Numbered from the stretch's first letter, positions 1,294-47,828 are shown. The stretch is DNA of 64,000 nt from Minisyncoccota bacterium (GCA_035546575.1 DASZWN010000001.1:119254-183253), one strand, 5' to 3'. Translations and numbers: made by a program. The notes: generated from the letters alone by a model not told the origin.

Positions 1294-2973
1294 ATGCAGG
1301 TTGATGAAGGGCAGCTCAGGGACTTTCTTATTGACTCAGGTCTGATGACCCGGAGCCAAGTGGCCGATGCCACAAGGCACTCGCAAGAGGAAAGCCTGCC
1401 TCTTTATACAACGCTCTCGCAGGGCGGTTACCTTGCGGCCGACGAGCTGCGCCGCGCGCTTGCCCACGCCTCGGGGGTAGCGTTTGTGCAGCTTAAGCAT
1501 GACGACATCTCCGCCAATGCGCTTGTGCTTATACCCGAGCCGGTCGCCCGCACCTACAACATGGTTGCGTTTAAGCAAGACGGCAACATAGTTGAGGTTG
1601 CGATGCTCGACTTGGCCGACTTGTCGCGTATCGACTTTTTGCGCGAAAAGCACGGCCTTACCATTGTGCCGCGGCTCACGACTGCCGAGTCTATAAAGCG
1701 CGCGCTCCATATCTACCAGAAGCATCTTAAAGAAAAGTTTTCGGCGCTGTTGCAGCATGGCACTACTGCTGTCGATGCGCTCATCCACCACGCGATACTC
1801 TCGTATGCCTCGGGCGTGCATCTCGACTTACACGACACGAGCATGTTGGTGCGCTACCGCATACAAGGTGTGCTCCACGAGGCAATGCGCTTGCCTGCCG
1901 ATGCCGCCACGATGCTCGAGCGTCTTAAAGAGTTGGCAAAGTTATCGCTCACACTGCATGTACCGCAAGAAGGCAGCTTTAGAGTCGAGATGGAAGGTGG
2001 GGACCAGGTAGGCGTGCGCGTTGCAACAGCACCAACCGCAAACGGCGAGCGCATGGTGCTGCACTTGACCCCCGATCGTGTTAGCAGCACCGGCTTTACG
2101 CTCTCGTCGCTTGGGCTGCACGGGCAAGCGCTCGAGGAAGCGCATCACATGCTGCAAACACGCTCAGGCCTTATTGTTGTGGCAGGGCGCGCGGGTGCGG
2201 GTAAAACTACAACGCTCTACACACTGCTCGACAATCTCTCGCAGCGCGACGCTGCAATCGCCACTATCGAGAGCGAGATAGAGCATCGCTTCCCGCATAT
2301 TGCACAGACACAAGTACGCCCCGACATCGGCGTAACATACGCGTCTGGTTTGCGTGCGCTGCTTAAACAAGACCCGGACATGGTAATGGTGGGGGAACTG
2401 AATGACGAAAAGACCGCAGCGCTCGCCGCGGCCGCAGCTGCGCGCGGCGTGCTGGTGCTCGCAGGCGTTGACCTGCCTGCCGGTAGGCAGGGGCTCGCTG
2501 CTGCAGCAATAGAGGTGCTGCGCGGGTTTGGTATCTCCGACCATTTGCTCGCGTCAACCTTACGCGGGGTTATAGGCGTGGAAGTTGTACGCAAACTTTG
2601 TAAAGAAGAGCGCGAGGAATATAGGCTTTCGCGCGCCGAGGGCGAGCCCATGGAGGGGCGGGCCAACTTTGGCCACGTGCTAGCGCAGCTTAAAGAGGAG
2701 GGGATAGTCCACAAAGACCTACCCTGGAAGGAATTACTGTTTGCCCGGGCCGAGCCCTGCTCTAACTGCGAGGATGGTTATGTGGGCCAAGTTGGCCTGC
2801 AGGAGGTGCTCCCCATCACCGCTACTATTAAAGAGAAGCTTATGGCTGGGGCCTTGGCCGAGGATATCGAGGCCTTGGCTCGGGCAGACGGGATGACCAC
2901 TACTATAGAAGACGGGCTTTTTAAGGCTGCCCAAGGAATAACAAGCGTTGAGGAGGTAGTTCGGGTTGTCTAA
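1294..2973 (+). CDS. Type II secretion / type IV pilus assembly ATPase, GspE/PilB family
   Basis: N-terminal T2SSE_N/MshEN-like domain. Walker A GRAGAGKTTT. Walker B/Glu box DPDMVMVGELND. C-terminal Cys cluster CSNCEDGY. The His box and Asp box look degenerate. Palindrome copy 2 lies in-frame at 2472-2493 and encodes LPAGRQG. Confidence 0.8.
   Translation: MQVDEGQLRDFLIDSGLMTRSQVADATRHSQEESLPLYTTLSQGGYLAADELRRALAHASGVAFVQLKHDDISANALVLIPEPVARTYNMVAFKQDGNIVEVAMLDLADLSRIDFLREKHGLTIVPRLTTAESIKRALHIYQKHLKEKFSALLQHGTTAVDALIHHAILSYASGVHLDLHDTSMLVRYRIQGVLHEAMRLPADAATMLERLKELAKLSLTLHVPQEGSFRVEMEGGDQVGVRVATAPTANGERMVLHLTPDRVSSTGFTLSSLGLHGQALEEAHHMLQTRSGLIVVAGRAGAGKTTTLYTLLDNLSQRDAAIATIESEIEHRFPHIAQTQVRPDIGVTYASGLRALLKQDPDMVMVGELNDEKTAALAAAAAARGVLVLAGVDLPAGRQGLAAAAIEVLRGFGISDHLLASTLRGVIGVEVVRKLCKEEREEYRLSRAEGEPMEGRANFGHVLAQLKEEGIVHKDLPWKELLFARAEPCSNCEDGYVGQVGLQEVLPITATIKEKLMAGALAEDIEALARADGMTTTIEDGLFKAAQGITSVEEVVRVV
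2472..2493. repeat. Palindromic element copy 2 (cctgcctgcc-ggta-ggcagggg), inside the gspE-like CDS
   Basis: Same core as 1252, 14472 and 32532. In-frame, encoding DLPAGRQGL. Confidence 0.7.
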
Positions 2974-3054
2974 ACAGTAGATTTTAAAAAATCGCCCAAA
3001 TACCTATATTTTAGGCCACATTCTGGCTACTCGAGAAGTAACTTGACCACATAC

Positions 3055-3083
3055 TTGACAAATAGTCCAATAGGGTGTATACT
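3055..3083 (+). promoter_or_regulatory. Sigma70-like promoter, TTGACA-17-TATACT
   Basis: Near-consensus -35 TTGACA at 3055-3060, a 17-nt spacer, and -10 TATACT at 3078-3083. A second TTGACC lies at 3043. It sits in an AT-rich segment downstream of the gspE-like gene. Confidence 0.5.
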
Positions 3084-3111
3084 TATACCAGTTACGATCG
3101 ATTACATATTC

Positions 3112-3162
3112 TTGGGTAAGCAGCTTTTAGAGGAGGCGGCACACCATCATCACCATATATAG
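3112..3162 (+). CDS. Candidate leader peptide, 16 aa, M(TTG)GKQLLEEAAHHHHHI, with five consecutive His codons
   Basis: TTG start about 25 nt downstream of the predicted transcription start. The run CAC CAT CAT CAC CAT lies immediately before the stop. It is followed by a 9-bp perfect palindrome (3158-3176) and a terminator-like hairpin. Confidence 0.3.
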   Translation: MGKQLLEEAAHHHHHI

Positions 3163-3177
3163 ACTGTCTATATATAG

Positions 3178-3228
3178 AGGCGATTGGGGAGCATTTCTTC
3201 TAAAGGAATACTGCCCAATCGCCTTTTT
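3178..3228 (+). terminator. Terminator/attenuator-like hairpin: 11-bp stem (aggcgattggg/cccaatcgcct), 25-nt loop, then TTTTT
   Basis: Perfect 11-bp inverted repeat followed by a T-run on the plus strand. Lies downstream of the His-codon ORF. Confidence 0.45.
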
Positions 3229-3405
3229 CGTTAGGGCGGATCGTTAGCCTGGTCTCTGACAACAAAATAGCAATTAGGAATAAAGCAGAACAATAGTGGC
3301 AAAGCCACAACTGATGTTGTTCCTCGTTGCCGGACTGACTCACCTAGTCGGTACGGTACGAGGGATCGCTTCCGCGATACCCGATAGTTCAACAGGAGAG
3401 AAGTC

Positions 3406-3528
3406 ATGAAGATCATTCGTAAGGTCGGTAATTGGTGGATGAGCCTCAGTCTCGGCGAGGCTGCGATCATCTCGTTCGGTTCGGCTGTGGCGGCAATGGT
3501 TGCCATAGCAGCGATCGTCGCCAGCTAG
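3406..3528 (+). CDS. Small hydrophobic peptide, 40 aa: MKIIRKVGNWWMSLSLGEAAIISFGSAVAAMVAIAAIVAS
   Basis: Strong SD (caGGAGAgaagtcATG). Single predicted TM helix. The stop is followed at once by a 12-bp perfect hairpin at 3536-3565. Not in the ORF track because it is under 60 aa. The overlapping antisense ORF 3231..3506 has poor codon usage. Confidence 0.35.
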   Translation: MKIIRKVGNWWMSLSLGEAAIISFGSAVAAMVAIAAIVAS

Positions 3529-3647
3529 TTCGTTCGGTAACCTGCAATACGTTTTGCAGGTTACCGATCCATTCAAGTACTTGATTCGCTCGAGTATTTT
3601 AATGGGAGTAGATTATCGAAACCACCGAATGCGCGTCGGTATCGCGC

Positions 3648-3914
3648 ATGAGCCCGATGGAGGGCAAGATGTACAAAGTTCAAGTTGGGGTGTGCGGTTT
3701 GGTTCTTTTTGGTCTGCTCGGACTTGTGTTTGTGTACGGAGGGTTATTCGCATTCTTAATCGCGTTTATTGCGACGCTCGCATCTCATCGTATGGCCGTG
3801 GTTACGGCACATGAGGAGCTTGCAGAGCTGACCAAGACGCTGATTTCGCTAAGTGCGGAGAATTCCCGCTACTATCAGAAGTTCGGGGAACTGGAAGAAT
3901 CATCCGCCACCTAA
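3648..3914 (+). CDS. Hypothetical small membrane protein; likely start at the ATG at 3669 (MYKVQVGV...)
   Basis: ORF-track ORF. SD GGAGGG 4-5 nt before the ATG at 3669. One TM segment plus a charged C-terminus. An operator-like inverted repeat lies upstream. Confidence 0.4.
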   Translation: MSPMEGKMYKVQVGVCGLVLFGLLGLVFVYGGLFAFLIAFIATLASHRMAVVTAHEELAELTKTLISLSAENSRYYQKFGELEESSAT

Positions 3915-4049
3915 GCTCAGGGCGTCGTTGATGTAAACGTCTACGACGCCCATCCATTCAAGTACTCAAGATATTGAATATTTGAATGGGTCCATAGTGC
4001 GGCCCTGAACGCGAGCATTGTGCTCGCACAACGCTGAGGAGAAGTTAGA

Positions 4050-4352
4050 ATGGAAATGATGATCACGCGGGTGCACAATATGCCCGCTTTCCTGATCCCT
4101 GGGGCGTACGATCTTCTGCGGCCGGTTCCGGTCGAGGTCGTCCAGCAAGTGCGGCAGGAGCGTCAGCGTCCGGCCAAGCCGTTGGTGGTTCTGGCCAAGA
4201 AGCAGCCGCAGGTGCTGCTGCCTGCATCCATCACCACACCGACGCATTCGACGAAGTTCTACGAGCCCAAGAAGCTCGACTCCTGCATCGTCGTGGTCCG
4301 GCGCAAGGGTCGCGGGGTGCGTTCCCCGCGCGTGAAGTTCCGGGTCCACTAG
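4050..4352 (+). CDS. Hypothetical protein, 100 aa, basic C-terminus
   Basis: SD GAGGAG 8 nt upstream. Strong GC3 bias in this frame, about 62% GC, higher than the neighbouring genes. Operator-like inverted repeat upstream. Confidence 0.45.
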   Translation: MEMMITRVHNMPAFLIPGAYDLLRPVPVEVVQQVRQERQRPAKPLVVLAKKQPQVLLPASITTPTHSTKFYEPKKLDSCIVVVRRKGRGVRSPRVKFRVH

Positions 4353-4693
4353 TCCGAGTTCGGTGGCGATTGTAATGGCTCAAACCCATTACACTCGCCG
4401 CCCCTTTCAAGCATTTATCCGTCTCGATGCCGAGATGAGTGTTTGAAAGGGGAGGTTAGTATGTGCGTACTCCCCACAAGTTCTTCTCGCTGCGCTGGTT
4501 AACGCCCCGTGAGCCATGCGCGCGGTTGGCGCGGCGATCCCGACGAGTGTACTTCGTGCAGGGATCGCCGCCGCCTTCTTCTTTGTGGCAGTTTTTGGGC
4601 TATAAACGGATCCTCTACACTTCAGTCGACACAAATCCTGGGATTTGCATCGATTGGAGCGACCCGTTTGTAGCCCTAAGACTGTCATACCAA

Positions 4694-4718
4694 GCCCTGC
4701 CCAACGGCGGGGCTTTTT
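4694..4718 (+). terminator. Intrinsic terminator (gccctgcc-caac-ggcggggc + TTTTT)
   Basis: 8-bp GC-rich stem with one G-U pair, tetraloop, U5 tract. Ends the structured region 4353-4718 just upstream of tpiA. Confidence 0.7.
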
Positions 4719-4742
4719 CCTACCCAAAAATGGTATAGTTGC

Positions 4743-5504
4743 TTGGTGAAGAAACGCCTCGTTGTCGGTAACTGGAAGATGTATATCACCTCAGCCGACA
4801 CTGCGAGTGAGTTTGCACTAATGTTGCGTAAAAAAGCTCGAGGACTCTCGGGCGCTGAGGTACTTATTGCGCCGTCTTTTACGCTCATACCCGTAGTTGC
4901 TGATGTGCTTGCAAGCTCGAGCATTCGCGTAGGAGCACAAGCGCTCTCAAGCTATACCGACGAGAAACATACCGGCGATGTCTCGGGCGCGATGCTGCGC
5001 GCCGCTGGTGCTAGCTTTGTAATTGTCGGCCACTCTGAGCGCCGCGCTGCGGGCGACACCGATGCGCTTGTGCATGCGCAGCTTGAGAATGCGATATCCG
5101 CAAAGCTTATGCCGATTTTGTGCGTAGGCGAGCTTGAGCGCACGCATGAGGCCGACCATTTTTCTTTTGTTGAAGAGCAGCTCAATACGGCGCTTATGGG
5201 CATTCCCAAAAATTTACTGAAGAAACTGGTGGTCGCATATGAGCCCGTGTGGGCGATAGGAAAAAGTGCTGCAGATGCGATGAAGCCGAGCGATGTGCAG
5301 GAGATGACTATTTTTATACGCAAAATTCTAACAGAGATCCTCGATCGCAAGATGGCACAACGCACTCCAGTTTTGTACGGTGGTTCAGTCGAGCCGGACA
5401 ACGCACCGACGCTACTTAAAGAGGGAGATGTCTCCGGTTTTTTGGTCGGGCACGCTAGCACGAATGTCGACTCGTTTGTGTCTATACTAAAAGCCGTTCG
5501 TTAG
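4743..5504 (+). CDS. tpiA: Triosephosphate isomerase
   Basis: VGNWKM, GHSERR, AYEPVWAIG, YGGSV motifs. TTG start per the ORF track. Confidence 0.92.
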   Translation: MVKKRLVVGNWKMYITSADTASEFALMLRKKARGLSGAEVLIAPSFTLIPVVADVLASSSIRVGAQALSSYTDEKHTGDVSGAMLRAAGASFVIVGHSERRAAGDTDALVHAQLENAISAKLMPILCVGELERTHEADHFSFVEEQLNTALMGIPKNLLKKLVVAYEPVWAIGKSAADAMKPSDVQEMTIFIRKILTEILDRKMAQRTPVLYGGSVEPDNAPTLLKEGDVSGFLVGHASTNVDSFVSILKAVR

Positions 5505-6818: not shown

Positions 6819-7808
6819 ATGCATCGCTTATCACTCAAGCAAAAAACGATATTCTTGTGGGGCATTGAGTTGGCTATGGCTGTTGCTTTGGTGCTGGCAA
6901 TTACAGCTCCTCGTGCATACGTACCCAACGCTCATGCGCAGGCCGCAACTAACGCGGGTACTCTTACAGGATATGCATGGAGCGAGAACGTAGGCTGGCT
7001 CAGTTTCAGCGGCAGCAACTATGGCGTTACTGTTTCTCCGACCGATGGCAACACTCTCACAGGATATGCATGGAGCGAGAACGTAGGCTGGGTCAGTTTT
7101 ACGTCGAGCGATTTATCGGGTTGTCCCTCAGGCGCATGCTCCGCACGACTTACCGGCACAAAACCAAATGTCTCTTTGGCGGGTTGGGCGCGCGCATGCG
7201 CAAGTACCGACAGCGGCGCATGTAGTGGGGCACAACATGTCGGTGGGTGGGATGGATGGATAAGCCTAAGTGGCACCTCTCCCAACTATAGTCCGACGAT
7301 TTCAACATACGCACCTAAGCCGGGGGCTGGCGGGATATTGGAAGGCTATGCGTGGGGGAGTACCGTAATGGGATGGTTGCAATTTAACCCAGCCTTCGGG
7401 GGAGTAACCGTTGCACTCACCGCATGCAACGACGGACTCGACGAAGATGGTGACGGCAATCCTGACCTAACCGACCCAGATTGTGTCGATCTCACTACCG
7501 ACTCTGAGGGTTCTACAGCAGTTGGTGCAGTAGATATCAAAGTAAACGGGAGCGATAGCCTTTCGGTGCGCAGTGGTTCCAGTGTGTCTGTGACTTGGAC
7601 GAGCGCTCTAGTTGGAGGATGTACGCTGCAGTCGCCATCCGGCACAAACTCAGTTGCTGCCCAAAACACTACAGGTACTCCATTTACCATAGCTGCTATC
7701 ACCAAGTTTGCGCTCACATGTACTACGCTTGTCGGCGGTAATCCGACGGGCCCTGCAATAAGCGACTCGGTCACGGTGCGACTTATTCCGGTATACAAAG
7801 AAATTTAG
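6819..7808 (+). CDS. Secreted/surface repeat protein; two LTGYAWSENVGW(L/V)SF repeats, Cys-rich middle, shared C-terminal domain ending IPVYKEI
   Basis: Signal-anchor N-terminus. Tandem repeats. The C-terminal ~90 aa align with the C-terminus of 15723..19997 (..VTW..C.L....G....T.FT..CT......IPV[YF][KQ]EI). Confidence 0.7.
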   Translation: MHRLSLKQKTIFLWGIELAMAVALVLAITAPRAYVPNAHAQAATNAGTLTGYAWSENVGWLSFSGSNYGVTVSPTDGNTLTGYAWSENVGWVSFTSSDLSGCPSGACSARLTGTKPNVSLAGWARACASTDSGACSGAQHVGGWDGWISLSGTSPNYSPTISTYAPKPGAGGILEGYAWGSTVMGWLQFNPAFGGVTVALTACNDGLDEDGDGNPDLTDPDCVDLTTDSEGSTAVGAVDIKVNGSDSLSVRSGSSVSVTWTSALVGGCTLQSPSGTNSVAAQNTTGTPFTIAAITKFALTCTTLVGGNPTGPAISDSVTVRLIPVYKEI

Positions 7809-7826
7809 CCCTATAATTGTAAGCAT

Positions 7827-8888
7827 ATGCAAAGTGTCAAAACAAAAGTAGCTGAGCTGACCCGCTTCGCCAAGGCGTTCCTTTTAGCGGCACTGGTGCT
7901 GCTTGCCGCAGGTGCCTATGCCTGGACTGCGCCAACGCAAGCGCCACCTGCTGGCAACGTACAACCGCCTATCAACGCAGGCGGCTCATATCAAACAATC
8001 GGGATTCTTGCCAACGGCACGACTACCGCCATTACCGGCGGTCTCTTATCGAGCGATGTGTTTGTGGTGGGCTCACCTACACCAAGCTCTGCGCCGCATG
8101 GCTCTATTTGTCTTTCCGGGTCGTGCATTACGAGCTGGAATCAGGCGGCTGGAGGCACCGACTATCAAGTTTTTACGTCGAGCGGTACTTGGACAAAGCC
8201 TGCCGATACGAGCGCATCGTCGCGTACGCTTATCGAGTGCTGGGGCGCAGGCGGGGGAGGCAGCAATAACGGAGGCGGGGGAGGCGGTGCATACGATGCC
8301 GTATGGTCCCTTACCTCTTCACTTAGCTCGACCATTGCGGTAACCGTAGCTACAGCGCCGGCTACGTCGGTGGCGGGGGGCGACTCCTCTTTCGGTTCGC
8401 TCGTTATTGCCAAGGGGGGAGGCGCCGGCGGCGCTGGCGGAGGCGGAGGAGGCGGAGGATACAGCGCAACGGGGAGTAACGGCACTTCTGCTGGGGGAGA
8501 CGGCGGTAATCCGAAGGGTAGTTGGATCTACCCGGGGGTAATTCCTTACTGTCGAGGAGGTACAAGCAGCAAGGGGGCCACCGGCGGTTCCGCATGCGGC
8601 GGAGGTGGCGGCAACGCCAATACGGAAGGCTACGATAAGGGCGGTTATTCCGTCACCGGAGGGGGCGGCGGTGCCGGTAATCACAATGATTCCAACCCTG
8701 CTAACGGTGGCGACTCTGTGTATGGCGGCGGCGGCGGGTCGGCAGGATCTTCCGGGGGTACTGGCGGCCAAAGCATGTTCGGCGGCAATGGCGGGGCTAC
8801 GGGCAGTGCCGGAATTGCCCCCGGCGGCGGCGGCGGGCGCAACGCGCAAGGTGCTCGCGGTGAGTGCCGCGTGACTACGTTTAAATAA
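7827..8888 (+). CDS. Secreted glycine-rich protein carrying a TWTKP...LIECWGAGGGG module
   Basis: Signal anchor. The module FTSSGTWTKPAD...TLIECWGAGGGGSNNGGGGGGAY recurs at residues ~1000-1050 of 15723..19997. Long Gly/Ser/Thr/Asn-rich tail. Confidence 0.7.
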   Translation: MQSVKTKVAELTRFAKAFLLAALVLLAAGAYAWTAPTQAPPAGNVQPPINAGGSYQTIGILANGTTTAITGGLLSSDVFVVGSPTPSSAPHGSICLSGSCITSWNQAAGGTDYQVFTSSGTWTKPADTSASSRTLIECWGAGGGGSNNGGGGGGAYDAVWSLTSSLSSTIAVTVATAPATSVAGGDSSFGSLVIAKGGGAGGAGGGGGGGGYSATGSNGTSAGGDGGNPKGSWIYPGVIPYCRGGTSSKGATGGSACGGGGGNANTEGYDKGGYSVTGGGGGAGNHNDSNPANGGDSVYGGGGGSAGSSGGTGGQSMFGGNGGATGSAGIAPGGGGGRNAQGARGECRVTTFK

Positions 8889-9243: not shown

Positions 9244-10899
9244 ATGAAATCGTACAGAATCCGCGAACGCCAGGACGAAAATCTGCTTTCTGATTTGCTG
9301 TTGGCGCGTGGAGTAGAGGGCGAGGAGGCGCAGAAGCAGTTCTTGGTACCCGACTTTGAGCGCGACTCGGGCGACCCGATGCTATTGCCAGACATGGAAA
9401 AAGCAGTGGATCGTATTTTGTCTGCTGTAAAAAATAACGAGCCTGTGTGCGTGTGGAGCGACTACGACTGCGACGGTATCCCCGGTGGCGTGATGCTCAC
9501 TGAGTTTTTGCGAGGCATAGGGCTCACGGTGCGCCATTATATCCCGCATCGGCATACGGAAGGGTACGGATTGAACGAAGAGGGGATTGAAGAACTGTTT
9601 CAGCAGGGCATCAAGCTCATCATCACCATTGACCTGGGCACCACAGAGATAGAGCAGATCGCATATGCAAATACAAAAGGAGTTGATGTAATCGTGACCG
9701 ACCACCACGTAGTGCAGCACGACTTGCCGGATGCGTTTGCGCTTTTAAACCCTAAACGCCCCGACAGCAAATATGGGTTCGACGGCTTGTGTGGTGCAGG
9801 TGTCGCCTGGAAGTTGATACAAGGCATCCTTAGCAAAAACCGTTTTGGTTTGAAGGAAGGGCAGGAAAAGTGGCTGCTCGATTTTGTCGGTATTGCGACG
9901 CTCTCCGACATGGTGCCCTTGGTGGGAGAAAACCGGATGCTCGCGCACTTTGGCTTGCGCGTCATGCGCCGCGACCGCCGGCCGGGAATCTCCGCCCTCT
10001 TAAAAATGCTGCGCATTAAGCCCGCAAGCCTTACCGAAGACGATATCGGTTTTATGATCTCTCCGCGCATTAATGCCGCATCGCGCATGGACAAGCCCGA
10101 CACTGCTGCGCGGTTGCTTGCTACAAGCGACACAGTTGAGGCTGCTGAGATTGCGGAGGAGTTGAATCACATTAATGATGAGCGTAAAGGAGTTGTTGCT
10201 GCAATAGTAAAAGAGGCAAACAAACGCATGGCCGACACTCCTATTGATGGACCAGTTATTGTAATGGGCAACCCTAAGTGGCGCCCAGGCGTACTTGGGC
10301 TTGTTGCAAACAAGTTGATGGAGGATCACAACAAGCCGGTATTTTTGTGGGGACGCGAGGGCGGCGACGTTATAAAAGGCTCGTGTCGCAGTGACGGCAG
10401 CGTGAGCGTTGTCGACCTGATGGCTGCGACAGGAGATGTGTTTCTCGGGTTTGGCGGACATACCGCCTCAGGTGGATTTTCTGTAGACGCTGGAAACGTG
10501 CACGAGCTATTGCCGCGGCTTACTCAGGCATACGAGATCCTTAAAGCAAAGGCATCAGTGCAGCAAGATGTTGTAATCGATCGCCAGGCAGATGTTGCAG
10601 AAATCCCGCACGCGCACCGCGACCTTCTGAAGCTCGCTCCGTTTGGCATAGGCAATCCAAAGCCGTTATTTATGTTCCCGGGGGTGTCTATAGGCAACAC
10701 CAAAATGTTTGGCAAAACCGAGAACCATCTCGACATGAGCTTACAGAAAGATGGCGCTAGGATCTCGGGCATCGCGTTTTTCTCGACACGCGACTCGTTT
10801 ACTAAACCTGTCGCTACTGGCGAACGCGCCGACATCGTGGGTCATATAGAGAGCGACTGGCGCGGCAACTCCCGTATCCGAGTAGTTGATATACTGTAA
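9244..10899 (+). CDS. recJ: Single-stranded-DNA-specific exonuclease RecJ (DHH family)
   Basis: DYDCDG, VTDHHV (DHH) and GGHTASGG (GGGH-like) motifs; typical length. Confidence 0.85.
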   Translation: MKSYRIRERQDENLLSDLLLARGVEGEEAQKQFLVPDFERDSGDPMLLPDMEKAVDRILSAVKNNEPVCVWSDYDCDGIPGGVMLTEFLRGIGLTVRHYIPHRHTEGYGLNEEGIEELFQQGIKLIITIDLGTTEIEQIAYANTKGVDVIVTDHHVVQHDLPDAFALLNPKRPDSKYGFDGLCGAGVAWKLIQGILSKNRFGLKEGQEKWLLDFVGIATLSDMVPLVGENRMLAHFGLRVMRRDRRPGISALLKMLRIKPASLTEDDIGFMISPRINAASRMDKPDTAARLLATSDTVEAAEIAEELNHINDERKGVVAAIVKEANKRMADTPIDGPVIVMGNPKWRPGVLGLVANKLMEDHNKPVFLWGREGGDVIKGSCRSDGSVSVVDLMAATGDVFLGFGGHTASGGFSVDAGNVHELLPRLTQAYEILKAKASVQQDVVIDRQADVAEIPHAHRDLLKLAPFGIGNPKPLFMFPGVSIGNTKMFGKTENHLDMSLQKDGARISGIAFFSTRDSFTKPVATGERADIVGHIESDWRGNSRIRVVDIL

Positions 10900-11344: not shown

Positions 11345-12676
11345 GTGAAATATTGGAGCATCTTTGGCCTCCTGGTGTTTGCATACGCGGCGCTTTTATT
11401 TGCTCGCGTTGTTTTTACGCTCAATGCCGAGGCTGCGGAGACTTTGCCTCTGTACGACGGACACACGGGTGCAGTGGTGGGGAGGGTAGTTAACGACCCT
11501 GACCGACGCGCTACTTCGCTCCATGTACATGTGAGGGTGGCGACAGTTGATGGCGAGCCCGCACGCGGTACGCTGCTTGCGCTTTTGCCGCCACAAGCAG
11601 AAGTTTCGTACGGCGACACCGTTGAGGTGTCGGGGACAATCAAAACACCAGAGCCGTTTGAGACCGACACGGGCCGCGAGTTTAACTACGCAGGCTATCT
11701 GCGCGTGCAAGGGGTCTCAATGATGATGCAAAAAGCTACGCTACAAAATGTAGAAGAGGGAGGACTATCTTTGCAAAAAACTCTTTTTAGCATCAAACAC
11801 ACGTTTGAACACTCGCTCGAGAAATTATTCCCCGAGCCGGACAACTCGCTGCTTGAGGGGATTCTGCTCGGCGAGCGCTCGGGGCTCCCGAAAGATGTAC
11901 AGAATGCGTTTATCGCATCGAGCTTGGTGCACGTGGTGGTGCTCTCCGGCTACAATATATCGATTGTTGCCAACGCGGTGCTCTACGCCACCTCGGGTTT
12001 GCCGCGCACATTCTCCTACGGCTTTGGCGGAATGCTCATGATCTTGTTTGCCATGATGACTGGTGCAGGTGCCACTACGGTGCGTGCATGCGCCATGGGA
12101 GTTATCTCTATTGTTGCGCAGTACATGCACCGGCCAACGGTCGCGATGCGCAGCCTTATCGCAGCGGCGGGTGCGATGATACTCTGGAACCCGCTTATTG
12201 TGCTCTACGACTCCTCTTTTATATTGAGTGTGCTCGCGACATTTGGACTCGTGACACTGTCACCGACGACCGAGCGGTGGGTAAGGTGGATCCCAGAGAA
12301 GTTTGGCCTACGGTCAATTGCCGCAGCAACAATCGCAGTGCAACTGTTTGTGCTGCCAGCACTTTTGTATTTTACCGGCGTACTTTCTGTTGTTGCACTG
12401 CCTGCAAATTTACTCGCGCTCCCTGTTGTGTCTTGGGCAATGTTGTTTGGTTTTATTGCGGGGCTTCTTGGATTTGTACATCCTGCACTCGCACTACCGT
12501 TCGCGATCCTCGGTGACGCGCTCCTTAGGTGGATGATGCTTGTAGCAAACACAGCAACCGCGTTCCCGTTCTCCTCGACAGTAGTGGCGGCTTTTCCTGC
12601 TTGGATACTTATAGCGATGTATATTCCGCTAACGACTATTGCCACTAAGATTTACCTTACACAAAGTAACTCATAA
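11345..12676 (+). CDS. comEC: ComEC/Rec2 DNA internalisation channel, N-terminal DUF4131-like plus competence domain only (no MBL domain)
   Basis: LLGERSGLPKDVQNAFIASSLVHVVVLSGYNISIV core and multiple TM segments. The protein ends before an MBL domain. Confidence 0.8.
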   Translation: MKYWSIFGLLVFAYAALLFARVVFTLNAEAAETLPLYDGHTGAVVGRVVNDPDRRATSLHVHVRVATVDGEPARGTLLALLPPQAEVSYGDTVEVSGTIKTPEPFETDTGREFNYAGYLRVQGVSMMMQKATLQNVEEGGLSLQKTLFSIKHTFEHSLEKLFPEPDNSLLEGILLGERSGLPKDVQNAFIASSLVHVVVLSGYNISIVANAVLYATSGLPRTFSYGFGGMLMILFAMMTGAGATTVRACAMGVISIVAQYMHRPTVAMRSLIAAAGAMILWNPLIVLYDSSFILSVLATFGLVTLSPTTERWVRWIPEKFGLRSIAAATIAVQLFVLPALLYFTGVLSVVALPANLLALPVVSWAMLFGFIAGLLGFVHPALALPFAILGDALLRWMMLVANTATAFPFSSTVVAAFPAWILIAMYIPLTTIATKIYLTQSNS

Positions 12677-13837: not shown

Positions 13838-14743
13838 ATGTATACTTTGCGCATGCAGTTTTTGCGCCGATACTTTTCTTACCTTATCCTTGCTGCTCTG
13901 GTTTTAATTTCAATCGGCATCTGGTCAGTTGTTTGGGCCGAGACTGCGCCCGGCAAACTCATTGTTGCGGTGCTCGACGTCGGCCAAGGCGACTCCATTT
14001 TTATAGAGTCTCCAACCGGAGTGCAGATTATTATCGATGGCGGCCCCGACAACTCTCTTTTGCACGACCTGCCGCATGTGATGCCGCTCTCTGACCGCTC
14101 TATCGACGCGGTGCTCGCAACGCACCTCGACGCTGACCACATCACCGGCTTTATTGACCTGCTCAAGCGCTACTCAGTTGGCGCGTTTATTGAATCAGGT
14201 TTAGTTAAGAGTACACTCACTGCGCGCACATTAGAAAAAGAAGTTGATGCGGAAAAAATCCCCCGCACGATCGCACGCCGGGGCATGTCGCTTGACCTCG
14301 GCGGGGGAGCGTATCTTGATGTCTTGTCTCCTGACTACGATGTCTCCATCTTGCCAGAGGACAAAGGCAACGAGGGGTGCATTGTCGCACATTTGGTCTA
14401 CGGCAAAACCTCGATGCTTTTAATGTGCGACGCATCTATGGATGTTGAGGATCATATTATGGCACTTGGGAGCCTGCCTACCGGACAGGCAGGCACAACG
14501 CAGATCAAAAGCGATATTTTAAAAGTCGGACACCATGGTTCGCACTCTTCGACGGGAGATGAATTTGTGAGCGAGGTTGACCCGTCGGTTGCCATTATCT
14601 CGGTTGGCGCACACAACACGTACGGTCACCCGGCTGAGCAGACACTCGACACCCTCGCAGCTCATAATGTAGAAACCCTCCGTACAGACGAGGAGGGGAC
14701 TATCAAGTTTATTTCGAACGGGGAGAAGTTTGTGAGGGATTAG
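13838..14743 (+). CDS. ComEC C-terminal metallo-beta-lactamase domain protein, encoded as a separate gene
   Basis: VLDVGQGDS, THLDADHITG, VGHHGSHSS, NTYGHP motifs and an N-terminal TM. Palindrome copy 3 lies in-frame at 14472-14494 and encodes LPTGQAGT. Confidence 0.8.
   Translation: MYTLRMQFLRRYFSYLILAALVLISIGIWSVVWAETAPGKLIVAVLDVGQGDSIFIESPTGVQIIIDGGPDNSLLHDLPHVMPLSDRSIDAVLATHLDADHITGFIDLLKRYSVGAFIESGLVKSTLTARTLEKEVDAEKIPRTIARRGMSLDLGGGAYLDVLSPDYDVSILPEDKGNEGCIVAHLVYGKTSMLLMCDASMDVEDHIMALGSLPTGQAGTTQIKSDILKVGHHGSHSSTGDEFVSEVDPSVAIISVGAHNTYGHPAEQTLDTLAAHNVETLRTDEEGTIKFISNGEKFVRD
14472..14494. repeat. Palindromic element copy 3 (gcctgcct-accggac-aggcaggc), inside the comEC-MBL CDS
   Basis: Same CCTGCC...GGCAGG core as 1252, 2472 and 32532. 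Confidence 0.6.
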
Positions 14744-29480: not shown

Positions 29481-29772
29481 TTTGTAACCTTTTTGTTTCT
29501 ACTCAGTTTTTATAAGTGGATAGAGTAGTCTGACAGTGGAGGCCTGTGAGGGGAAACCCTCGGACGCTCACATACGAGCTCACACATTCCTTTTGAGCCT
29601 CTGTATTTTTTACACGCTCTCCCACTCCATCTTCGTTCTTTCTTCCCCCACCCGCCTCATCATTTTTGATGAGGCATATTTCTTGCTACACTCAGGTTGT
29701 CCGGTGCCAGAAGGTATTGAGGAGGGGCGCAAGCTCTGAATCAGAGCTCTGGCAAACGACGGCCGTAACTAT

Positions 29773-29820
29773 AACGGCCCTAGGGGGTGGAGGCGTCAAA
29801 ACCTCCACCCCTGCCTTTTT
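29773..29820 (+). terminator. Terminator-like hairpin (ggggtggagg/cctccacccc 10-bp stem, then TGCCTTTTTC)
   Basis: Perfect 10-bp stem followed by a T-run, inside the rpsJ-rplC spacer. Confidence 0.5.
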
Positions 29821-29927
29821 CTTGCATAATTTTAAACCTTAGGTTATAGTCTTCTGGACTCTCGACCCGCGCCCTTGGCGGGGTAAACATAGGGTTGTCC
29901 ACGTCCCCTCGGGGACCAATAGAAACC

Positions 29928-30551
29928 ATGAAATTCATCCTTGGAACAAAGGGCAAAATGACGACTGTATACACCGAAGAGGGTCAGGCCTTTGCCGCGA
30001 CCGTTATTACTGCTACTCCGGGTGTAGTTACACAGATCAAAACAGCCGAGAAGGAGGGTTACAACGCCGTCCAGATCGGTGGTATCGACGGCAACGTAAA
30101 GCACACCAACAAAGCGCAGCGGGGCCACGCAAAGGGCAAATTCTTTAAGCATTTCCGTGAGCTTCGCGCACGCGACGGCAAACTGCCGGAGGGTGTCGAG
30201 GTAGGTGCCACAATCGACCTTTCTGCGTTTGCAGTTGGCGACAAGGTGCAAGTGTCTGCAATCTCAAAGGGCAAAGGCTTTGCCGGCGTTGTTAAGCGCT
30301 ACAACTTTAAGGGCGGTCCACGTTCCCATGGCCAGAAGCACAGCGAGCGTGCACCGGGTTCTATCGGCGGCTCTGGCGGTCGCGCAGGCGGTCGCGTTGC
30401 TAAGGGTATGCGCATGGCAGGCCGCATGGGCCAAGACCGCGTAACCGTGCGCAACCTCGCAATACTCCAGGTGCTTCCAGAGACAAACGAGCTCGTTATT
30501 GCAGGTGCAATCCCGGGCCGCGCAGGTACGCTTGTTGAGATACGCGGCTAG
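29928..30551 (+). CDS. rplC: 50S ribosomal protein L3
   Basis: MKFILGTKGKMTTVYTEEG...; start chosen at the conserved N-terminus rather than the longer ORF-track start at 29895. Confidence 0.9.
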   Translation: MKFILGTKGKMTTVYTEEGQAFAATVITATPGVVTQIKTAEKEGYNAVQIGGIDGNVKHTNKAQRGHAKGKFFKHFRELRARDGKLPEGVEVGATIDLSAFAVGDKVQVSAISKGKGFAGVVKRYNFKGGPRSHGQKHSERAPGSIGGSGGRAGGRVAKGMRMAGRMGQDRVTVRNLAILQVLPETNELVIAGAIPGRAGTLVEIRG

Positions 30552-33641: not shown

Positions 33642-34616
33642 ATGTCGAAGACAGACCAAATACGGCCGATGGTTATCGACTTGCCGCTCAAGTATCGCGG
33701 CAAAACGCGCGACACATATGAGGCCAAGTGGCCTGACCCAAACGACAAGCGCCGGCCGCCGCTCTTGATCGTGGCAAGCGACCGTATCTCGACGCATGAC
33801 GTCGTGCACAAGAGCATGATCCCAAAGAAGGGCGAGGTGCTCAATGCGCTAACGATCTTCTGGATCGTCGACGTGCTCGAGAAGCTCGGTATTGCTCACC
33901 ATCTCATTGCCTACGGCAAGAAGATCTATGATTACGTGCCGAAGCCGGACAGCGACCCCAAGGACGTACCGCTCCACCACCGAGCAATCGTAGTGAAGCA
34001 ACTCGATATAATTCTGGTCGAGTTTATCCTCCGGCAATTTCTGTGTGGGGGCTTGTGGAGCAAGCATTACAGTAAGGGTCTGGACCCTTACGGGCTCAGT
34101 ATCCCCGCAGGTCTTCCGCTCATGACGAACTTTGGCACGTTGGCAAAGTTTGCTGCACCCGTCTTCACTCCGACCAAGAAATCGGATGAAGAACATGATC
34201 CGCCGCTACTGAGCGAGGCGACTGCTCGGGAACATCCGGAGGCTCTTATGCTCAGCCGAAAAGTGTTCGATCGCGGCAGGCAACGTCTCCGTACGAGGGG
34301 AATCGAGCTCATCGACTCCAAGTTCGAGTTTGGGATCGACGAAGATGGTCAGGTGGTGCTCGCCGATGAGGTTCTCACGCCTGACTCAAGCCGCTTCGCA
34401 CTGCTCAGCGACATCAAGGAGGGGGAGAACCCGCCTTGGCTCGATAAGCAGATCGCTCGCGATTGGGCGGAAAAGCATTGGGGGCTTAACCCCAAAGAGC
34501 CTCTGGTATTTCCACCTCTTACGATCAGCGGCATCCGCAATACCTACGTCGATCTATTCGAGCAGATCGTCGGCATGAAGCTCAGTCAGTTCCAGCACGA
34601 ACGGCTCGACAACTAG
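33642..34616 (+). CDS. purC: Phosphoribosylaminoimidazole-succinocarboxamide (SAICAR) synthase
   Basis: YRGKTRDTYE, LLIVASDRISTHDVV, DSKFEFG, DEVLTPDSSRF motifs. SD GGAGG. Confidence 0.85.
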   Translation: MSKTDQIRPMVIDLPLKYRGKTRDTYEAKWPDPNDKRRPPLLIVASDRISTHDVVHKSMIPKKGEVLNALTIFWIVDVLEKLGIAHHLIAYGKKIYDYVPKPDSDPKDVPLHHRAIVVKQLDIILVEFILRQFLCGGLWSKHYSKGLDPYGLSIPAGLPLMTNFGTLAKFAAPVFTPTKKSDEEHDPPLLSEATAREHPEALMLSRKVFDRGRQRLRTRGIELIDSKFEFGIDEDGQVVLADEVLTPDSSRFALLSDIKEGENPPWLDKQIARDWAEKHWGLNPKEPLVFPPLTISGIRNTYVDLFEQIVGMKLSQFQHERLDN

Positions 34617-35132: not shown

Positions 35133-35507
35133 ATGGCTGACTCAACCGCATCACTTAAGAATTACCGCCAGTCGCCTCGCAAGGTGCGTCTTGTGGCTGA
35201 TCTTATCCGCGGCAAGTCGGCAGACCGCGCGCTCGCGCTTTTGAACACGCTCCCAAAGCGCGCGTCTGATCCGGTTGCCAAACTCCTCCTCTCGGCTATC
35301 GCAAATGCAAAGCAGGCGGCCCCGCAGTCGGAGCTCTATGTTTCGAGCATTCAGGTCAACGGCGGGATTGTCTTTAAGCGCTCGATGCCTCGCGCACGCG
35401 GTCGCGCATCGGCTATCCGCAAGCGCACCAGCCACATCACCTTGGCCCTCAGCCGCAAGGCTGAAAGTCAAAAAGCAAGAAGCGCTTCTTCGAAGGCCCA
35501 AAAATAA
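35133..35507 (+). CDS. rplV: 50S ribosomal protein L22
   Basis: L22 family sequence. Confidence 0.9.
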   Translation: MADSTASLKNYRQSPRKVRLVADLIRGKSADRALALLNTLPKRASDPVAKLLLSAIANAKQAAPQSELYVSSIQVNGGIVFKRSMPRARGRASAIRKRTSHITLALSRKAESQKARSASSKAQK

Positions 35508-35508
35508 T

Positions 35509-36183
35509 ATGTCTAAAGTTGTACACCCATTTGCACATCGGCTCGGTATCCTGCGTGACTGGCGTCATCGCTGGTTTGTGACGGGCCCTAAGTACCAGCA
35601 GTACCTCAAGGCCGACATTCTTTTGCGTGAGTACCTCCAAAAGGAGCTCCGCGGCATGTATATCGGCGGTATGGAGATTGAGCGCAACGAGAAGCAGCTC
35701 CGCGTTATCATCAAAACATCGCGCCCGGGCGTTATCATCGGTCGCAGCGGCGAGGGCTCTGCTAAAATGCGCGACAAGATCACCGCATTCCTCCGCAAGC
35801 ACAAACTCCCGGTTCCGGAGATCAAGCTCGATATCGAGGAGATCCGCTCACCAGAATCGAGCGCTGCTATTGTTGGCTACATGGTAGCCGAGGGTCTCGA
35901 AAAGCGCATGCCATTCCGCCGCGTACTCAAGCAGACTATCGAAAAGGTTATGGCAAACCGCGATGTTAAGGGTGTCCGTATCGGCCTCTCGGGCATGCTC
36001 GGCGGTGGCTCTATGTCCCGCACCGAGGAGCTCAAGAAGGGCCGTATTCCGCTGCAGACTTTCCGCTCTGATATCGACTTTGCTAAGGAGCGCGCAAACC
36101 TCCCGCTCGGCGTGATCGGTATTAAAGTGTGGATCTACCGCGGCGAGGTCTTTGCGGACGCGCCTAAAGAGAAGACCAAATAA
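35509..36183 (+). CDS. rpsC: 30S ribosomal protein S3
   Basis: MSKVVHPFAHRLGI... The ORF-track ORF 35275..36183 begins 78 codons upstream of the conserved S3 N-terminus; start set at the ATG at 35509. Confidence 0.9.
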   Translation: MSKVVHPFAHRLGILRDWRHRWFVTGPKYQQYLKADILLREYLQKELRGMYIGGMEIERNEKQLRVIIKTSRPGVIIGRSGEGSAKMRDKITAFLRKHKLPVPEIKLDIEEIRSPESSAAIVGYMVAEGLEKRMPFRRVLKQTIEKVMANRDVKGVRIGLSGMLGGGSMSRTEELKKGRIPLQTFRSDIDFAKERANLPLGVIGIKVWIYRGEVFADAPKEKTK

Positions 36184-45619: not shown

Positions 45620-46204
45620 ATGCAGCATCCTAAAGAGGAGAAGACATTCGTGCTTATAAAACCCGATGGGGTCCGTAAGGGCCTGGTGGGTGAGATTATC
45701 AAGCGCTTTGAGCAGCGCGACCTTAAGGTCGTGGCGCTCGAAATGTTTGAGCCATCGCGCGCCGAGATGGATCAACATTATCCAAAAGACGAAAAGTGGC
45801 TGACCCGCATCGGCGACAAGACCGCCGCAACCTACGAGAAGTACGGTTACGATATCAAAAAAGATTTTGGCACGACCAACCGTCTTTCGATCGGCAAAGA
45901 AGTACGCAAATGGCTCATCACGTTCATGACCTCGGCGCCGATGGTTAAGATGGTGGTACAGGGCGTGCATTCGGTAGATATGGTCCGCAAAATCGTGGGG
46001 CCTACGATGCCATACCTAGCTGAGATGGGCACCATCCGTGGCGATTACTCCGCAGATTCGGCCATAAGCGCAAATATGGAGAAACGCGCGGTGTTTAACC
46101 TGGTCCATGCAAGCGAGACTCCCGAGGAGGCGCGTCACGAGATCAATCATTGGTTTGGTAAAAAGAACATCTTTCACTACAAGCGTTTTGGTATTGATGA
46201 ATAA
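45620..46204 (+). CDS. ndk: Nucleoside diphosphate kinase (with insertion)
   Basis: EKTFVLIKPDGVRKGLVGEIIKRFE...GPTMPY...GTIRGDY. Confidence 0.85.
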   Translation: MQHPKEEKTFVLIKPDGVRKGLVGEIIKRFEQRDLKVVALEMFEPSRAEMDQHYPKDEKWLTRIGDKTAATYEKYGYDIKKDFGTTNRLSIGKEVRKWLITFMTSAPMVKMVVQGVHSVDMVRKIVGPTMPYLAEMGTIRGDYSADSAISANMEKRAVFNLVHASETPEEARHEINHWFGKKNIFHYKRFGIDE

Positions 46205-46255
46205 AGCTTTTTAGCCTCTTCATTGCATCTTTTTAGAGTTTGCTATAATAGGTCT

Positions 46256-46420
46256 AGGACTGCGAAGGCAAATGTCCTTAAGTGATCTATCGGGAGTTCG
46301 CTGTGGCGGGGCACCGTGGTGTACCGCTTAGAACACCCACTTTGCACAAAGGTAGACGCTTGCTTTCGGAGTCCCACAAAGAACAACAAACTCTGCGTAT
46401 GCAGGGGTTTTTTGTTCCCA
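46256..46420 (+). ncRNA. Candidate small RNA of about 165 nt with its own promoter (TTGCAT-15-TATAAT at 46223-46249) and a weak terminator (ctgc-gtat-gcag + GGGGTTTTTT)
   Basis: No convincing ORF. Several internal hairpins. Promoter-like and terminator-like signals bracket it. Family not recognised. Confidence 0.25.
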
Positions 46421-46466
46421 AAAAATAGACCGCGTTTTCTCTGGGATTTTTTGTTACAATTACACG

Positions 46467-47828
46467 ATGCAATCGACCATATATTTTTACGGAGGCGCGG
46501 GAGCCGTGACAGGCTCTAATTTTTTGCTCGACACGGGCGGCGCAAAATTTTTGATAGACTGCGGTCTCTCGCAGGGGAGGCATGATGCAGAAGAGGACAA
46601 TTGGAAAGCGTTTCCCTATGACCCTGCCTCAATCCCGTTTCTCGTTGTGACGCATGCTCACATCGATCACGTCGGGCGCATTCCTAAGCTGGTGCGTGAT
46701 GGCTTTAAGGGCAAGATTATTTCGACCGAGGCAACCAAGGCATTATCCGAGCCGTTACTCATGGACAGCATGGAACTGCTCGCGCACGACGCGCGCAAGC
46801 ACGGCCGCGAAGAGCTCTACAACGAGCATGACATCGCAAAAGCCTTCACCATGTGGGAAGGCGTCGGCTATCATCAAAGGCAAGAACTCGCAGACGGAGT
46901 TATGCTAGAATTTTTTGATTCCGGACACATCCTCGGTTCCGCAATGGCGCAGTTTGAGAGGGGAGGAGTAAAAGTAGTGTTTACCGGCGACTTGGGCGGC
47001 GGCAACTCCCCGCTCTTGGTTGGTGCGGACGAAATCCCTGGTACGAACTATCTCACTATGGAGAGCGTCTATGGGGACCGCATCCGCGGCAAAGAGGAGA
47101 ATCATAAAGATCAGCTCGAGGATGTTATTGAAGACACTGCAGCGCGCGGTGGCACGCTGCTTATACCTGCGTTCTCAACCGAGCGCACCCAAGACCTCTT
47201 GTTTGAGGTCAGGAGCCTCATGATGGATAAAAAAGTCCCTTCTATGCCGGTGTATGTCGACTCGCCGTTAGCGCAAAAGATAACGGCCGCGTATTTGGCA
47301 CACCCCGAATACTTTCCTCCTACTATACGTGAGCGAATACAAAACGGAGAGAATATTTTTACGTTTCCGGAGCTCAAGTTTGTTGAGAGTGTCGAGGAGT
47401 CCAAACATACAGCCGGGCTCCCCGGGCCAAAAATAGTTATTGCCGGCTCTGGCATGAGCAACGGCGGGCGCGTGCAAGGCCACCAAAAGTACGTGCTCCC
47501 GGACGCAAAGTCAACCCTCCTGATTGTTGGATACCAAGCAGCAGGCAGCCTCGGCCGCCGCCTGCTCGAGGGCGAAAAGCATGTCCGTGTGGCGGGCGAG
47601 GAGGTAGTAGTGCGCTCAAAAGTTGAGGCTATCTACGGCTACTCGGCCCACATGGACGGCGAGCAGCTGCTTGAGTTTGCTAACAAAGCGGCACCGTCGC
47701 TTAAGCAGGTGTTTGTGGTGATGGGGGAGCCTGCATCATCGGGTTTTTTGGTGCAGCGTATTCGCGATTACCTTGGTATTAAGGCGAATGCTCCCAACGT
47801 GGGTGATAAAGCGCAAATAGATTTTTAA
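46467..47828 (+). CDS. Beta-CASP family metallo-beta-lactamase ribonuclease (RNA-metabolising MBL hydrolase)
   Basis: HAHIDHVG (HxHxDH). Beta-CASP region. C-terminal RMMBL-like segment. Confidence 0.8.
   Translation: MQSTIYFYGGAGAVTGSNFLLDTGGAKFLIDCGLSQGRHDAEEDNWKAFPYDPASIPFLVVTHAHIDHVGRIPKLVRDGFKGKIISTEATKALSEPLLMDSMELLAHDARKHGREELYNEHDIAKAFTMWEGVGYHQRQELADGVMLEFFDSGHILGSAMAQFERGGVKVVFTGDLGGGNSPLLVGADEIPGTNYLTMESVYGDRIRGKEENHKDQLEDVIEDTAARGGTLLIPAFSTERTQDLLFEVRSLMMDKKVPSMPVYVDSPLAQKITAAYLAHPEYFPPTIRERIQNGENIFTFPELKFVESVEESKHTAGLPGPKIVIAGSGMSNGGRVQGHQKYVLPDAKSTLLIVGYQAAGSLGRRLLEGEKHVRVAGEEVVVRSKVEAIYGYSAHMDGEQLLEFANKAAPSLKQVFVVMGEPASSGFLVQRIRDYLGIKANAPNVGDKAQIDF

Follow-up and report, generated by a model that had tools for sequence, protein, structure and literature searches.

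In a 64,000-nt stretch of a Minisyncoccota bacterium genome (GCA_035546575.1 DASZWN010000001.1:119254-183253; hereafter the window, whose positions serve as coordinates throughout), a 40-codon open reading frame (ORF; 3406-3528, + strand) encodes a small hydrophobic peptide and lies between a stem in its 5' untranslated region (UTR) and a strong hairpin. Is this a type I toxin gene, as an initial annotation of the sequence had proposed, or does the locus have another meaning? Our analysis points to the latter. Judged from sequence and gene order, the ORF is the cassette closest to the promoter (cassette 1) in a variable array of three units that spans approximately 3370-4455 between pilB and tpiA. 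The descriptive part of this account, a variable array framed by conserved RNA structures, is well supported. The overall model, in which a genuine lineage-specific peptide gene resides in such an array at a fixed chromosomal site, has in our estimation a probability of about 0.6. The candidate toxin itself is weak as a finding, and its surroundings are worth more.

Conserved RNA structures around a variable cassette array

We initially collected the loci that encode PilB relatives (numbered L003, L004 and so on), and the array was compared by tblastn and blastn with approximately 125 related loci; the counts of leader loci and hairpin copies come from metagenome and contig scans and are lower bounds. 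The site has the order nusA / pilB / array / tpiA / pgk, in which nusA is on the minus strand and runs off the left end of the window, the gene for the PilB-type T2SSE ATPase (1294-2973) has the same direction as the array, and tpiA (4743-5504) is followed by pgk. The order pilB, leader, variable stretch (760-4750 bp), tpiA and pgk was observed in about 20 loci. In the closest locus, L003 (PilB identity 81%), non-coding sequence downstream of pilB could be aligned to positions 3042-3369 of the window with 88% identity. This alignment stops just before the ORF, and the next gene in L003 encodes an unrelated membrane protein of 68 amino acids (aa). Units 1 to 3 of the window share no nucleotide or amino-acid similarity with other arrays, and none of their genes has a match in the related loci; the leader, the hairpins and the post-array region are 77-93% identical to those of L003 and L045.

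We also found the same cassette at different positions. A family of 137-aa proteins is encoded at position 1 in L004, L023, L116 and L118 and at position 2 in L019, and the gene pair for this protein and an 83-aa protein immediately follows the leader in L004, whereas in L019 it follows a conserved-hairpin copy. The similarity between L004 and L019 begins exactly at the junction between ...GGG and (A)TCGCAATCA(T/G)GCGATTCC, which is the end of the leader or the hairpin. In L037 (1280-1363, - strand) and L062 (4378-4441), the conserved hairpin occurs 15 nt after the leader with no ORF between them, that is, with an empty first unit. Genes for small unrelated membrane proteins fill the same slot after the leader in other genomes and constitute the first unit in 10 of 25 arrays. 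Ten cassette proteins of other arrays were also searched against Pfam, without a usable annotation.

The leader that heads the array is a conserved structured RNA of the + strand, supported by covariation. Its core (3246-3369) consists of a 5' sub-domain, in which GCAG (3285-3288) and CUG (3311-3313) enclose AACAA and a hairpin at 3296-3308, and a long 3' helix (3315-3339 paired with 3347-3369). The core also occurs after pilB in L004, L019 and L015, whose PilB identities are only 56-40%. A degenerate 21-mer derived from the core retrieved at least 109 metagenome stretches, and in an nhmmer profile search of 129 sequences the whole core was recognised in 69, which represent about 50 distinct Paceibacterota loci. 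RNAalifold analysis of 37 distinct sequences gave the 3' helix as UGUUGUUCCUCGUUGCCGGACUGAC - loop - GUCGGUACGGUACGAGGGAUCGCA, with 97.7% of cells paired and changes on both sides in 7 of the 23 pairs. No shuffle out of 500 reached its covariation score, and slid controls fell to 33-46% paired. Several U.G or G.U positions in this helix are invariant, and therefore the complementary strand would not fold alike. The 4-bp helix of the 5' sub-domain appears in five Watson-Crick versions (GCAG/CUGC, GUGA/UCAC, GGAG/CUCC, GGCG/CGCC and GCGG/CCGC), and the sub-domain is missing from six members. The whole leader of the window folds with a z-score of -5.2, and leader size ranges from 125 nt to more than 300 nt across loci. 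Searches against Rfam 15, conducted with a 391-nt slice at E <= 10 and with the whole window and ten other loci at the gathering threshold, returned no match to the leader. Resemblances to signal recognition particle RNA, RNase P RNA, 6S RNA, T-box RNAs and group I/II introns were rejected on the same lack of Rfam matches.

Upstream of the leader and array lies a sigma70-type promoter, TTGACA-17-TATACT (3055-3083, + strand), which agrees with 11 of 12 consensus positions. Only one other promoter-like site was seen in 2800-4800, likewise upstream of the leader, and the promoter block CTTGACAA...GGGTGTATACT/AAT is kept ahead of the leader in many loci. As a separate observation, a conserved palindrome, CTTGACAAAAGTCAAG, covers the -35 region in the window (3040-3083) and its equivalents, accompanied by GGGTGTATACT; it is kept in distant genomes and could be an operator. 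The promoter is followed by module A of the leader (3090-3232, + strand), in which a CUUUUAGAGGAGG block is conserved and a terminator-like hairpin (3178-3224) leads into UUUUUC. Module A is 87-88% identical to its counterparts in L003/L045/L057 and L022 and 77-83% identical to those in L046/L096, L047, L117 and L066; in L004 and L015 it is missing, and the promoter directly adjoins the core. The leader is modular, as seen upstream of the core in the window and in L019, L046, L047, L066, L078, L106, L125 and L070; a further conserved module, AGGACA-hairpin-UGUCCUCGCUACGACAGGAUGUGCAGUCGGUGAGCGGG, precedes the core in many loci and is missing from the window. We considered a histidine leader peptide, for an ORF at 3043-3162 ends in HHHHHI ahead of the terminator-like hairpin, and rejected it because the histidine run is not kept in L003 or L022.

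The 5'-UTR stem reported in the initial annotation (gggatcgc, 3362-3369, with gcgatacc, 3374-3381) is present as GGGAUCGC-UUCC-GCGAUACC at 3362-3381 (+ strand), and its 5' arm is the 3' strand of the closing helix of the leader (3362-3369). Taken alone, the stem has a stability at chance level (z -0.36). Because both use GGGAUCGC, the stem and the closing helix are mutually exclusive. Most family members have equivalent hairpins, GGGAUCGCA..UGCGAUUCC, behind the leader, and in most of them the 3' arm of this downstream hairpin (UGCGAUUCC, or the duplicated CUGUUGUUCCUUGU) mimics the upstream strand UGUUGUUCC. In other words, GGGAUCGC(A) has two possible partners, the upstream UGUUGUUCC and the downstream mimic (UGCGAUUCC; GCGAUACC in the window). 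These alternative pairings follow the logic of a regulatory switch, and we infer that the leader may function as one; neither a terminator nor a clear sequestration of the Shine-Dalgarno sequence was seen after the alternative pairing at the leader 3' end.

Behind the leader lie diverse genes: those for orphan small membrane proteins, for the recurrent 137-aa family and its zinc-ribbon partner, and for HicB-HicA and an AAA ATPase, as well as a helicase operon. In contexts other than pilB (L101, oriented 811-2109; L083, 1049-1774; and L070/L075), the leader adjoins a gene for a large serine recombinase or an ISL3 transposase and heads HicB-HicA, AAA ATPase or helicase operons. The L101 contig, which has the leader and the serine recombinase, also carries a match to LOOT RNA (RF03000) at 7823-7952 (+ strand), with 57.2 bits, above the gathering threshold. 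The functional heterogeneity of the downstream genes argues against a classical metabolite riboswitch, and since these genes are functionally unrelated, no ligand can be guessed. The leader does resemble riboswitches and the leaders of processive antitermination (put of HK022, EAR and the LoaP leader) in lying close to the promoter at the head of a long operon with hairpins, in being a multi-helix RNA supported by covariation, and in having pairings at its 3' end that exclude each other. However, it differs from them in belonging to no Rfam family and in preceding unrelated genes, and no dedicated NusG paralogue or partner was identified.

Next, we analyzed the hairpins that follow each cassette. 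The stop codon of the 40-codon ORF is followed after 5 nt by a unique hairpin (3534-3567, + strand). The initial annotation had given this as a perfect 12-bp hairpin without a T-run; the T-run is indeed missing, but the stem is longer, with 14 perfect base pairs, and the sequence ggtaacctgcaa-tacgtt-ttgcaggttacc (3536-3565) is only its inner part. It folds at -24.7 kcal/mol, whereas 200 shuffles, none of them as stable, gave -6.8 +/- 2.5 (z -7.3). As an intrinsic terminator it lacks a U-tract (GAUCCAUUCAAG follows) and was not flagged by the terminator scan. Directly after it comes copy 1 of the conserved intercistronic hairpin (3568-3606, + strand), an imperfect palindrome, CCAUUCAAGUACUUGA...UCGAGUAUUUUAAUGG, that folds with -16.6 kcal/mol (z -3.7) on the + strand versus -9.9 (z -1.7) on the - strand.

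The same arrangement is repeated in the other two units, all on the + strand. The cassette 2 ORF (3669-3914) encodes a membrane protein of 81 aa with a coiled C-terminus and no homologues, and has a codon log-likelihood ratio (trained on 16 long genes of the window, as are all codon scores here) of +0.18; it would give 88 aa from the ATG at 3648, a reading for which an exact-sequence look-up found no match, and gene callers use the 81-aa start. It is followed by a unique hairpin (3920-3951; -22.6 kcal/mol) and by copy 2 of the conserved hairpin (3953-3990). The cassette 3 ORF (4050-4352; 100 aa) belongs to no Pfam family and has no homologues in other arrays, and its codon score of +0.06 makes its coding status weak. 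A unique hairpin (4362-4402; -24.8 kcal/mol) and copy 3 of the conserved hairpin (4402-4451), which has a longer apical insert, complete this last unit.

Across loci, the conserved hairpin is represented by at least 41 unique copies, always on the leader strand and downstream of the leader, with 1 to 5 copies detected per array. Its consensus is CCnUUUCAAGCnCUUGA...UCGAGnRUUUGAAAGG and its length 38-50 nt. In 38 aligned copies, the conserved 18-bp helix had 90.6% of cells paired, and 12 of its 18 pairs had changed on both sides; 0 of 500 shuffles had so high a covariation score, and slid controls were at most 56% paired. Two wobble pairs are nearly invariant (G.U in 35 and U.G in 33 of the 38 copies), and the hairpin therefore folds well on the + strand only. 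A unique hairpin of -12 kcal/mol or stronger was found in the 44 nt upstream of 38 of the 41 copies, ending 0-3 nt before the copy, compared with 12% for shuffles. The hairpin at 3534-3567 looks like an RNA stability or processing element, as the initial annotation had preferred over a terminator, and is one instance of this module rule. The modules are reminiscent of the intercistronic RNase III hairpins of phage T7 and of stabilisers of the repetitive extragenic palindromic (REP) type, which likewise comprise conserved irregular hairpins between cistrons and 3' hairpins that would protect the upstream segment. They differ in that processing is here only proposed, in their confinement to one chromosomal locus in a lineage of the Candidate Phyla Radiation (CPR), and in the lack of a sequence relationship.

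Several other identities were considered for the conserved hairpin. A sigma70 promoter (TTCAAG-17-TATTTT) was rejected because the -10-like hexamer is not kept (TGTTTG, TGTTTC) and covariation and wobbles indicate a folded strand. A palindromic operator is disfavoured, given that wobble pairing accommodates both asymmetric positions on one and the same strand and that folding depends on the strand. A repeat resembling a DNA uptake sequence does not fit three copies in 64 kb that all lie between pilB and tpiA; a look-alike at 45699-45750 is inside the ndk coding sequence. A phage origin was dismissed for both elements: a loose hairpin pattern had 32 matches in IMG/VR, none of which passes the full motif profile, the leader pattern had no match, and neither element occurs in the IMG/VR viral contigs.

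The array is followed by a structured region (4456-4722, + strand) that ends in an intrinsic terminator at approximately 4690-4722, ahead of the tpiA promoter. It has a minimum free energy of -142 kcal/mol (z -9.7), is 77% identical to L003/L045 and is partly kept in L046/L096, with compensatory changes in a long hairpin in L096. The Rfam search of this region gave sub-threshold noise only.

The 40-codon frame and its peptide

Is the first cassette then a real gene? The ORF starts with the ATG at 3406 and ends with TAG (3526-3528), and the strong Shine-Dalgarno sequence of the initial annotation is AGGAGAG (3394-3400, + strand), 5 nt upstream of the start. The 40-aa product, MKIIRKVGNWWMSLSLGEAAIISFGSAVAAMVAIAAIVAS, has a basic N-terminus (K2/R5/K6) and a single C-terminal transmembrane segment, with a 17-residue hydropathy maximum of 2.3, also in agreement with that annotation. 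It is on record as the NCBI hypothetical protein VHD31_00700 of a Candidatus Paceibacterota metagenome-assembled genome, and the gene is also called in two Logan assemblies. We calculated codon scores for this frame and the three ORFs that overlap it. The 40-codon ORF scored +0.315 bits/codon, whereas the antisense ORF 3231-3506 scored -0.25, the ORF 3340-3576 (- strand) -0.08 and the ORF 3432-3584 (+ strand) -0.37. The references were 0.37 +/- 0.18 for in-frame random 40-codon chunks of real genes and -0.67 +/- 0.27 for off-frame chunks. Given that its score is gene-like and those of the three overlapping ORFs are negative, the 40-aa frame is the sole coding-like frame among them.

Searches for relatives of the peptide returned little. 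We searched 5.8 billion proteins through a word index and 1.84 billion cluster representatives with HMMER, the latter being the kind of family search with hidden Markov models that the initial annotation had recommended, and recovered only the peptide itself, plus a 992-aa protein that matched through low-complexity sequence. No family in Pfam or NCBIfam was significant; the only Pfam hit, BTP, stayed below threshold (E 0.036; 14.5 bits, with a cut-off of 25.6), and NCBIfam had none. A prepilin of the Flp or type IV pilin kind next to pilB was rejected, with no G/XXXXEY or GFTLIE motif and no Pfam match. Genes for membrane peptides of 43-47 aa are found directly behind the leader in other loci, including one of 46/47 aa that is common to L106 and L126. 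Taken together, the ORF is probably a genuine but lineage-specific gene for a small membrane peptide.

These results leave the type I toxin reading unsupported, because the peptide is an orphan, belongs to no toxin family and had no antisense promoter detected opposite it. The antisense ORF at 3231-3506 does exist as the initial annotation had stated; from its non-coding codon usage and its position over the conserved RNA element, it is a shadow ORF. The antisense RNA that the same annotation had thought conceivable found no backing either: a simple consensus scan of 2800-4800, which could miss an atypical promoter, detected no promoter-like site on the minus strand. Conservation of the peptide in relatives, the lack of which the annotation had itself named as half of the case against its proposal, was not found. 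A membrane-active and possibly toxic role of the peptide is conceivable but without specific support.

Weighing the explanations

How might such an array work? We infer from the sequence that it would be transcribed as a single mRNA of about 1.6 kb, from the promoter at 3055-3083 to the terminator near 4722, and that the leader would set its expression according to whether GGGAUCGC pairs with the upstream UGUUGUUCC or the downstream GCGAUACC. Both hairpins of a module would work at the RNA level: the unique one would stabilise the 3' end of the upstream cistron or be a weak stop for it, and the conserved one would be recognised by a protein or an endoribonuclease, as are the RNase III sites that separate phage T7 genes. 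Homology for cassette replacement, probably after DNA uptake, would come from the conserved leader, hairpins and flanks. Several points weigh against the model of a peptide gene in an RNA-framed array. The single transcript, the switching of the leader and the processing of the RNA are all read from sequence; the terminator-like hairpin and U-run of module A (3178-3230), upstream of the core, would stop transcription unless read through; and the heterogeneous downstream genes leave the signal of the leader without a candidate. With no homologue of the peptide, purifying selection cannot be demonstrated, and a codon statistic on only 40 codons is suggestive, not decisive. In addition, pairing on the sense strand would suit single-stranded DNA of the top strand equally well, and a recombination role for the hairpins is thus possible.

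This last point leads to the main rival, an integron-like DNA mechanism, which we regard as possible but unlikely. It supposes that the conserved hairpin is an attC-like site in single-stranded DNA, that the leader 3' end (...ACGAGGG joined to AUCGCA) is attI-like, and that a recombinase encoded elsewhere moves units of gene plus hairpins, with any RNA effects being secondary. The locus has much in common with integron cassette arrays and with clusters of attC sites lacking an integron integrase (CALINs): a fixed platform with one promoter, co-oriented, unrelated, mostly promoterless and mostly unknown small genes that are each followed by a structured, imperfectly palindromic repeat, strand-specific pairing, which is a property of attC too, and content that is swapped between relatives with conserved flanks. 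Arrays differ in length, with 1 to 5 repeat copies detected, the first unit is empty in L037/L062, and the same cassette is found after the leader in L004 and after the hairpin in L019, with the junction GGG/(A)TCGCA. A leader-type (A)TCGxA start is seen at approximately 9 of 41 internal junctions, and the competence genes pilB, recJ and comEC are neighbours. However, most internal cassettes have no leader-type start, and neither IntI nor attI is present; we found no integrase or recombinase beside the array, nor in a scan of 20 of the larger ORFs of the window, and the gene upstream is pilB, in the same direction. An attC site is an imperfect palindrome of 57-141 nt with R'' RYYYAAC and R' GTTRRRY boxes that recombines as the bottom strand. 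The hairpin here is shorter, with 38-50 nt, lacks these boxes, keeps its sequence in distant genomes and, owing to the G.U wobbles that are typical of RNA, pairs best as the coding strand. Integron arrays also have no counterpart to the extra unique hairpin before each repeat or to the large structured leader at the start, and this leader also heads ordinary operons without hairpin repeats. A variant of this idea would place in Paceibacterota an integrase-less, integron-like platform for gene capture beside the DNA-uptake genes pilB, recJ and comEC. The leader would be both switch and insertion point, the sense-strand hairpins would mark cassette ends for some recombinase acting on incoming single-stranded DNA or for homology-driven exchange after transformation, and small orphan membrane peptides would be the typical cargo. 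We offer this only tentatively and consider it unlikely as it stands.

The two remaining alternatives concern the first cassette itself, and both appear less probable still. If the ORF were untranslated, 3370-3563 would be a non-coding spacer or a decayed cassette, and the frame would have arisen by chance in hydrophobic-looking sequence rich in GC at third codon positions. The absence of conservation evidence of any kind in our searches, the length of only 40 codons and the empty or ORF-less units of other arrays (L037/L062) agree with this. Against it stand the canonical AGGAGAG at ideal spacing from an ATG start, a codon score within the range of real genes with all three overlapping ORFs negative, and the 43-47-aa membrane-peptide genes right behind the leader elsewhere, of which the L106/L126 pair is conserved between contigs; we therefore judge it improbable. 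Very improbable, in our view, is a type I toxin-antitoxin (TA) system, in which a 40-aa membrane-depolarising toxin would have its translation curbed by the structured 5' UTR and an antisense RNA, while the 3' hairpin would stabilise the mRNA. The peptide does share with the products of Hok/Sok, Fst/RNAII, TisB/IstR-1, Ldr/Rdl, Ibs/Sib and TxpA/RatA a length below 60 aa, a basic N-terminus and one transmembrane helix, C-terminal in this case. A structured 5' UTR and a stable hairpin at the mRNA 3' end are further likenesses, and TA genes (HicAB in L070/L075) sit behind the same leader elsewhere. Unlike those systems, however, this locus has no detectable antisense RNA gene, and its peptide lies outside the known families (Hok/Gef, Fst, TisB, Ldr, Ibs and TxpA), is not conserved and has no second copy. 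The 5'-UTR stem is not specific to a toxin, being the 3' end of a leader RNA found ahead of unrelated genes in dozens of genomes; it and the element after the hairpin are generic array parts, common to unrelated and mostly non-toxin-like genes. In L003, the closest relative, the same slot holds a different gene.

Neighbouring features and implications

The remainder of the window is core chromosome and encodes EF-G, EF-Tu, ribosomal proteins, SecY, FtsH and tmRNA. Genes for DNA uptake and processing occur near the array: in addition to pilB (1294-2973), there are recJ, comEC (Competence and DUF4131 domains) and a separate metallo-beta-lactamase ORF (9244-10899, 11345-12676 and 13838-14743). 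Two adjacent genes at 6819-7808 and 7827-8888 encode products with an N-terminal signal or anchor, one with repeated YAWSENVGW motifs and the other extremely glycine-rich, and neither has a Pfam family. Within the ribosomal-protein cluster, a SAICAR synthetase gene (33642-34616) lies between those for L2 (31675-32523) and S3 (35275-36183). Just upstream of rplC (29895-30551), a 111-nt stretch at 29694-29804 (+ strand) matches positions 1856-2001 of the bacterial large-subunit rRNA model with 58.8 bits against a gathering threshold of 50; this may be a regulatory leader that mimics rRNA at the head of the ribosomal-protein operon, or else a stray piece of rRNA. Between ndk and a gene for an RNase J-like beta-CASP protein (46467-47828), at approximately 46200-46440 (+ strand), a TTGCTATAAT-type promoter and a hairpin with a T-run terminator may delimit a small RNA gene.

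In the literature that we searched, whose coverage was incomplete, there was no description of the array, the leader or the conserved hairpin, and none of them matches Rfam 15; the leader RNA is apparently undescribed. The leader and the 18-bp hairpin are kept across Paceibacterota genomes whose PilB proteins share only about 36-56% identity. Together, they define a fixed chromosomal slot that exchanges small, mostly orphan genes between lineages. CPR bacteria have tiny genomes and depend on hosts, and members of the Saccharibacteria are reportedly naturally transformable. The array offers a compact natural system in which to study a new regulatory RNA together with intercistronic RNA signals. 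If it is true that this is a regulated slot for accessory membrane peptides, then it would provide a handle on how CPR bacteria gain and express strain-specific functions.

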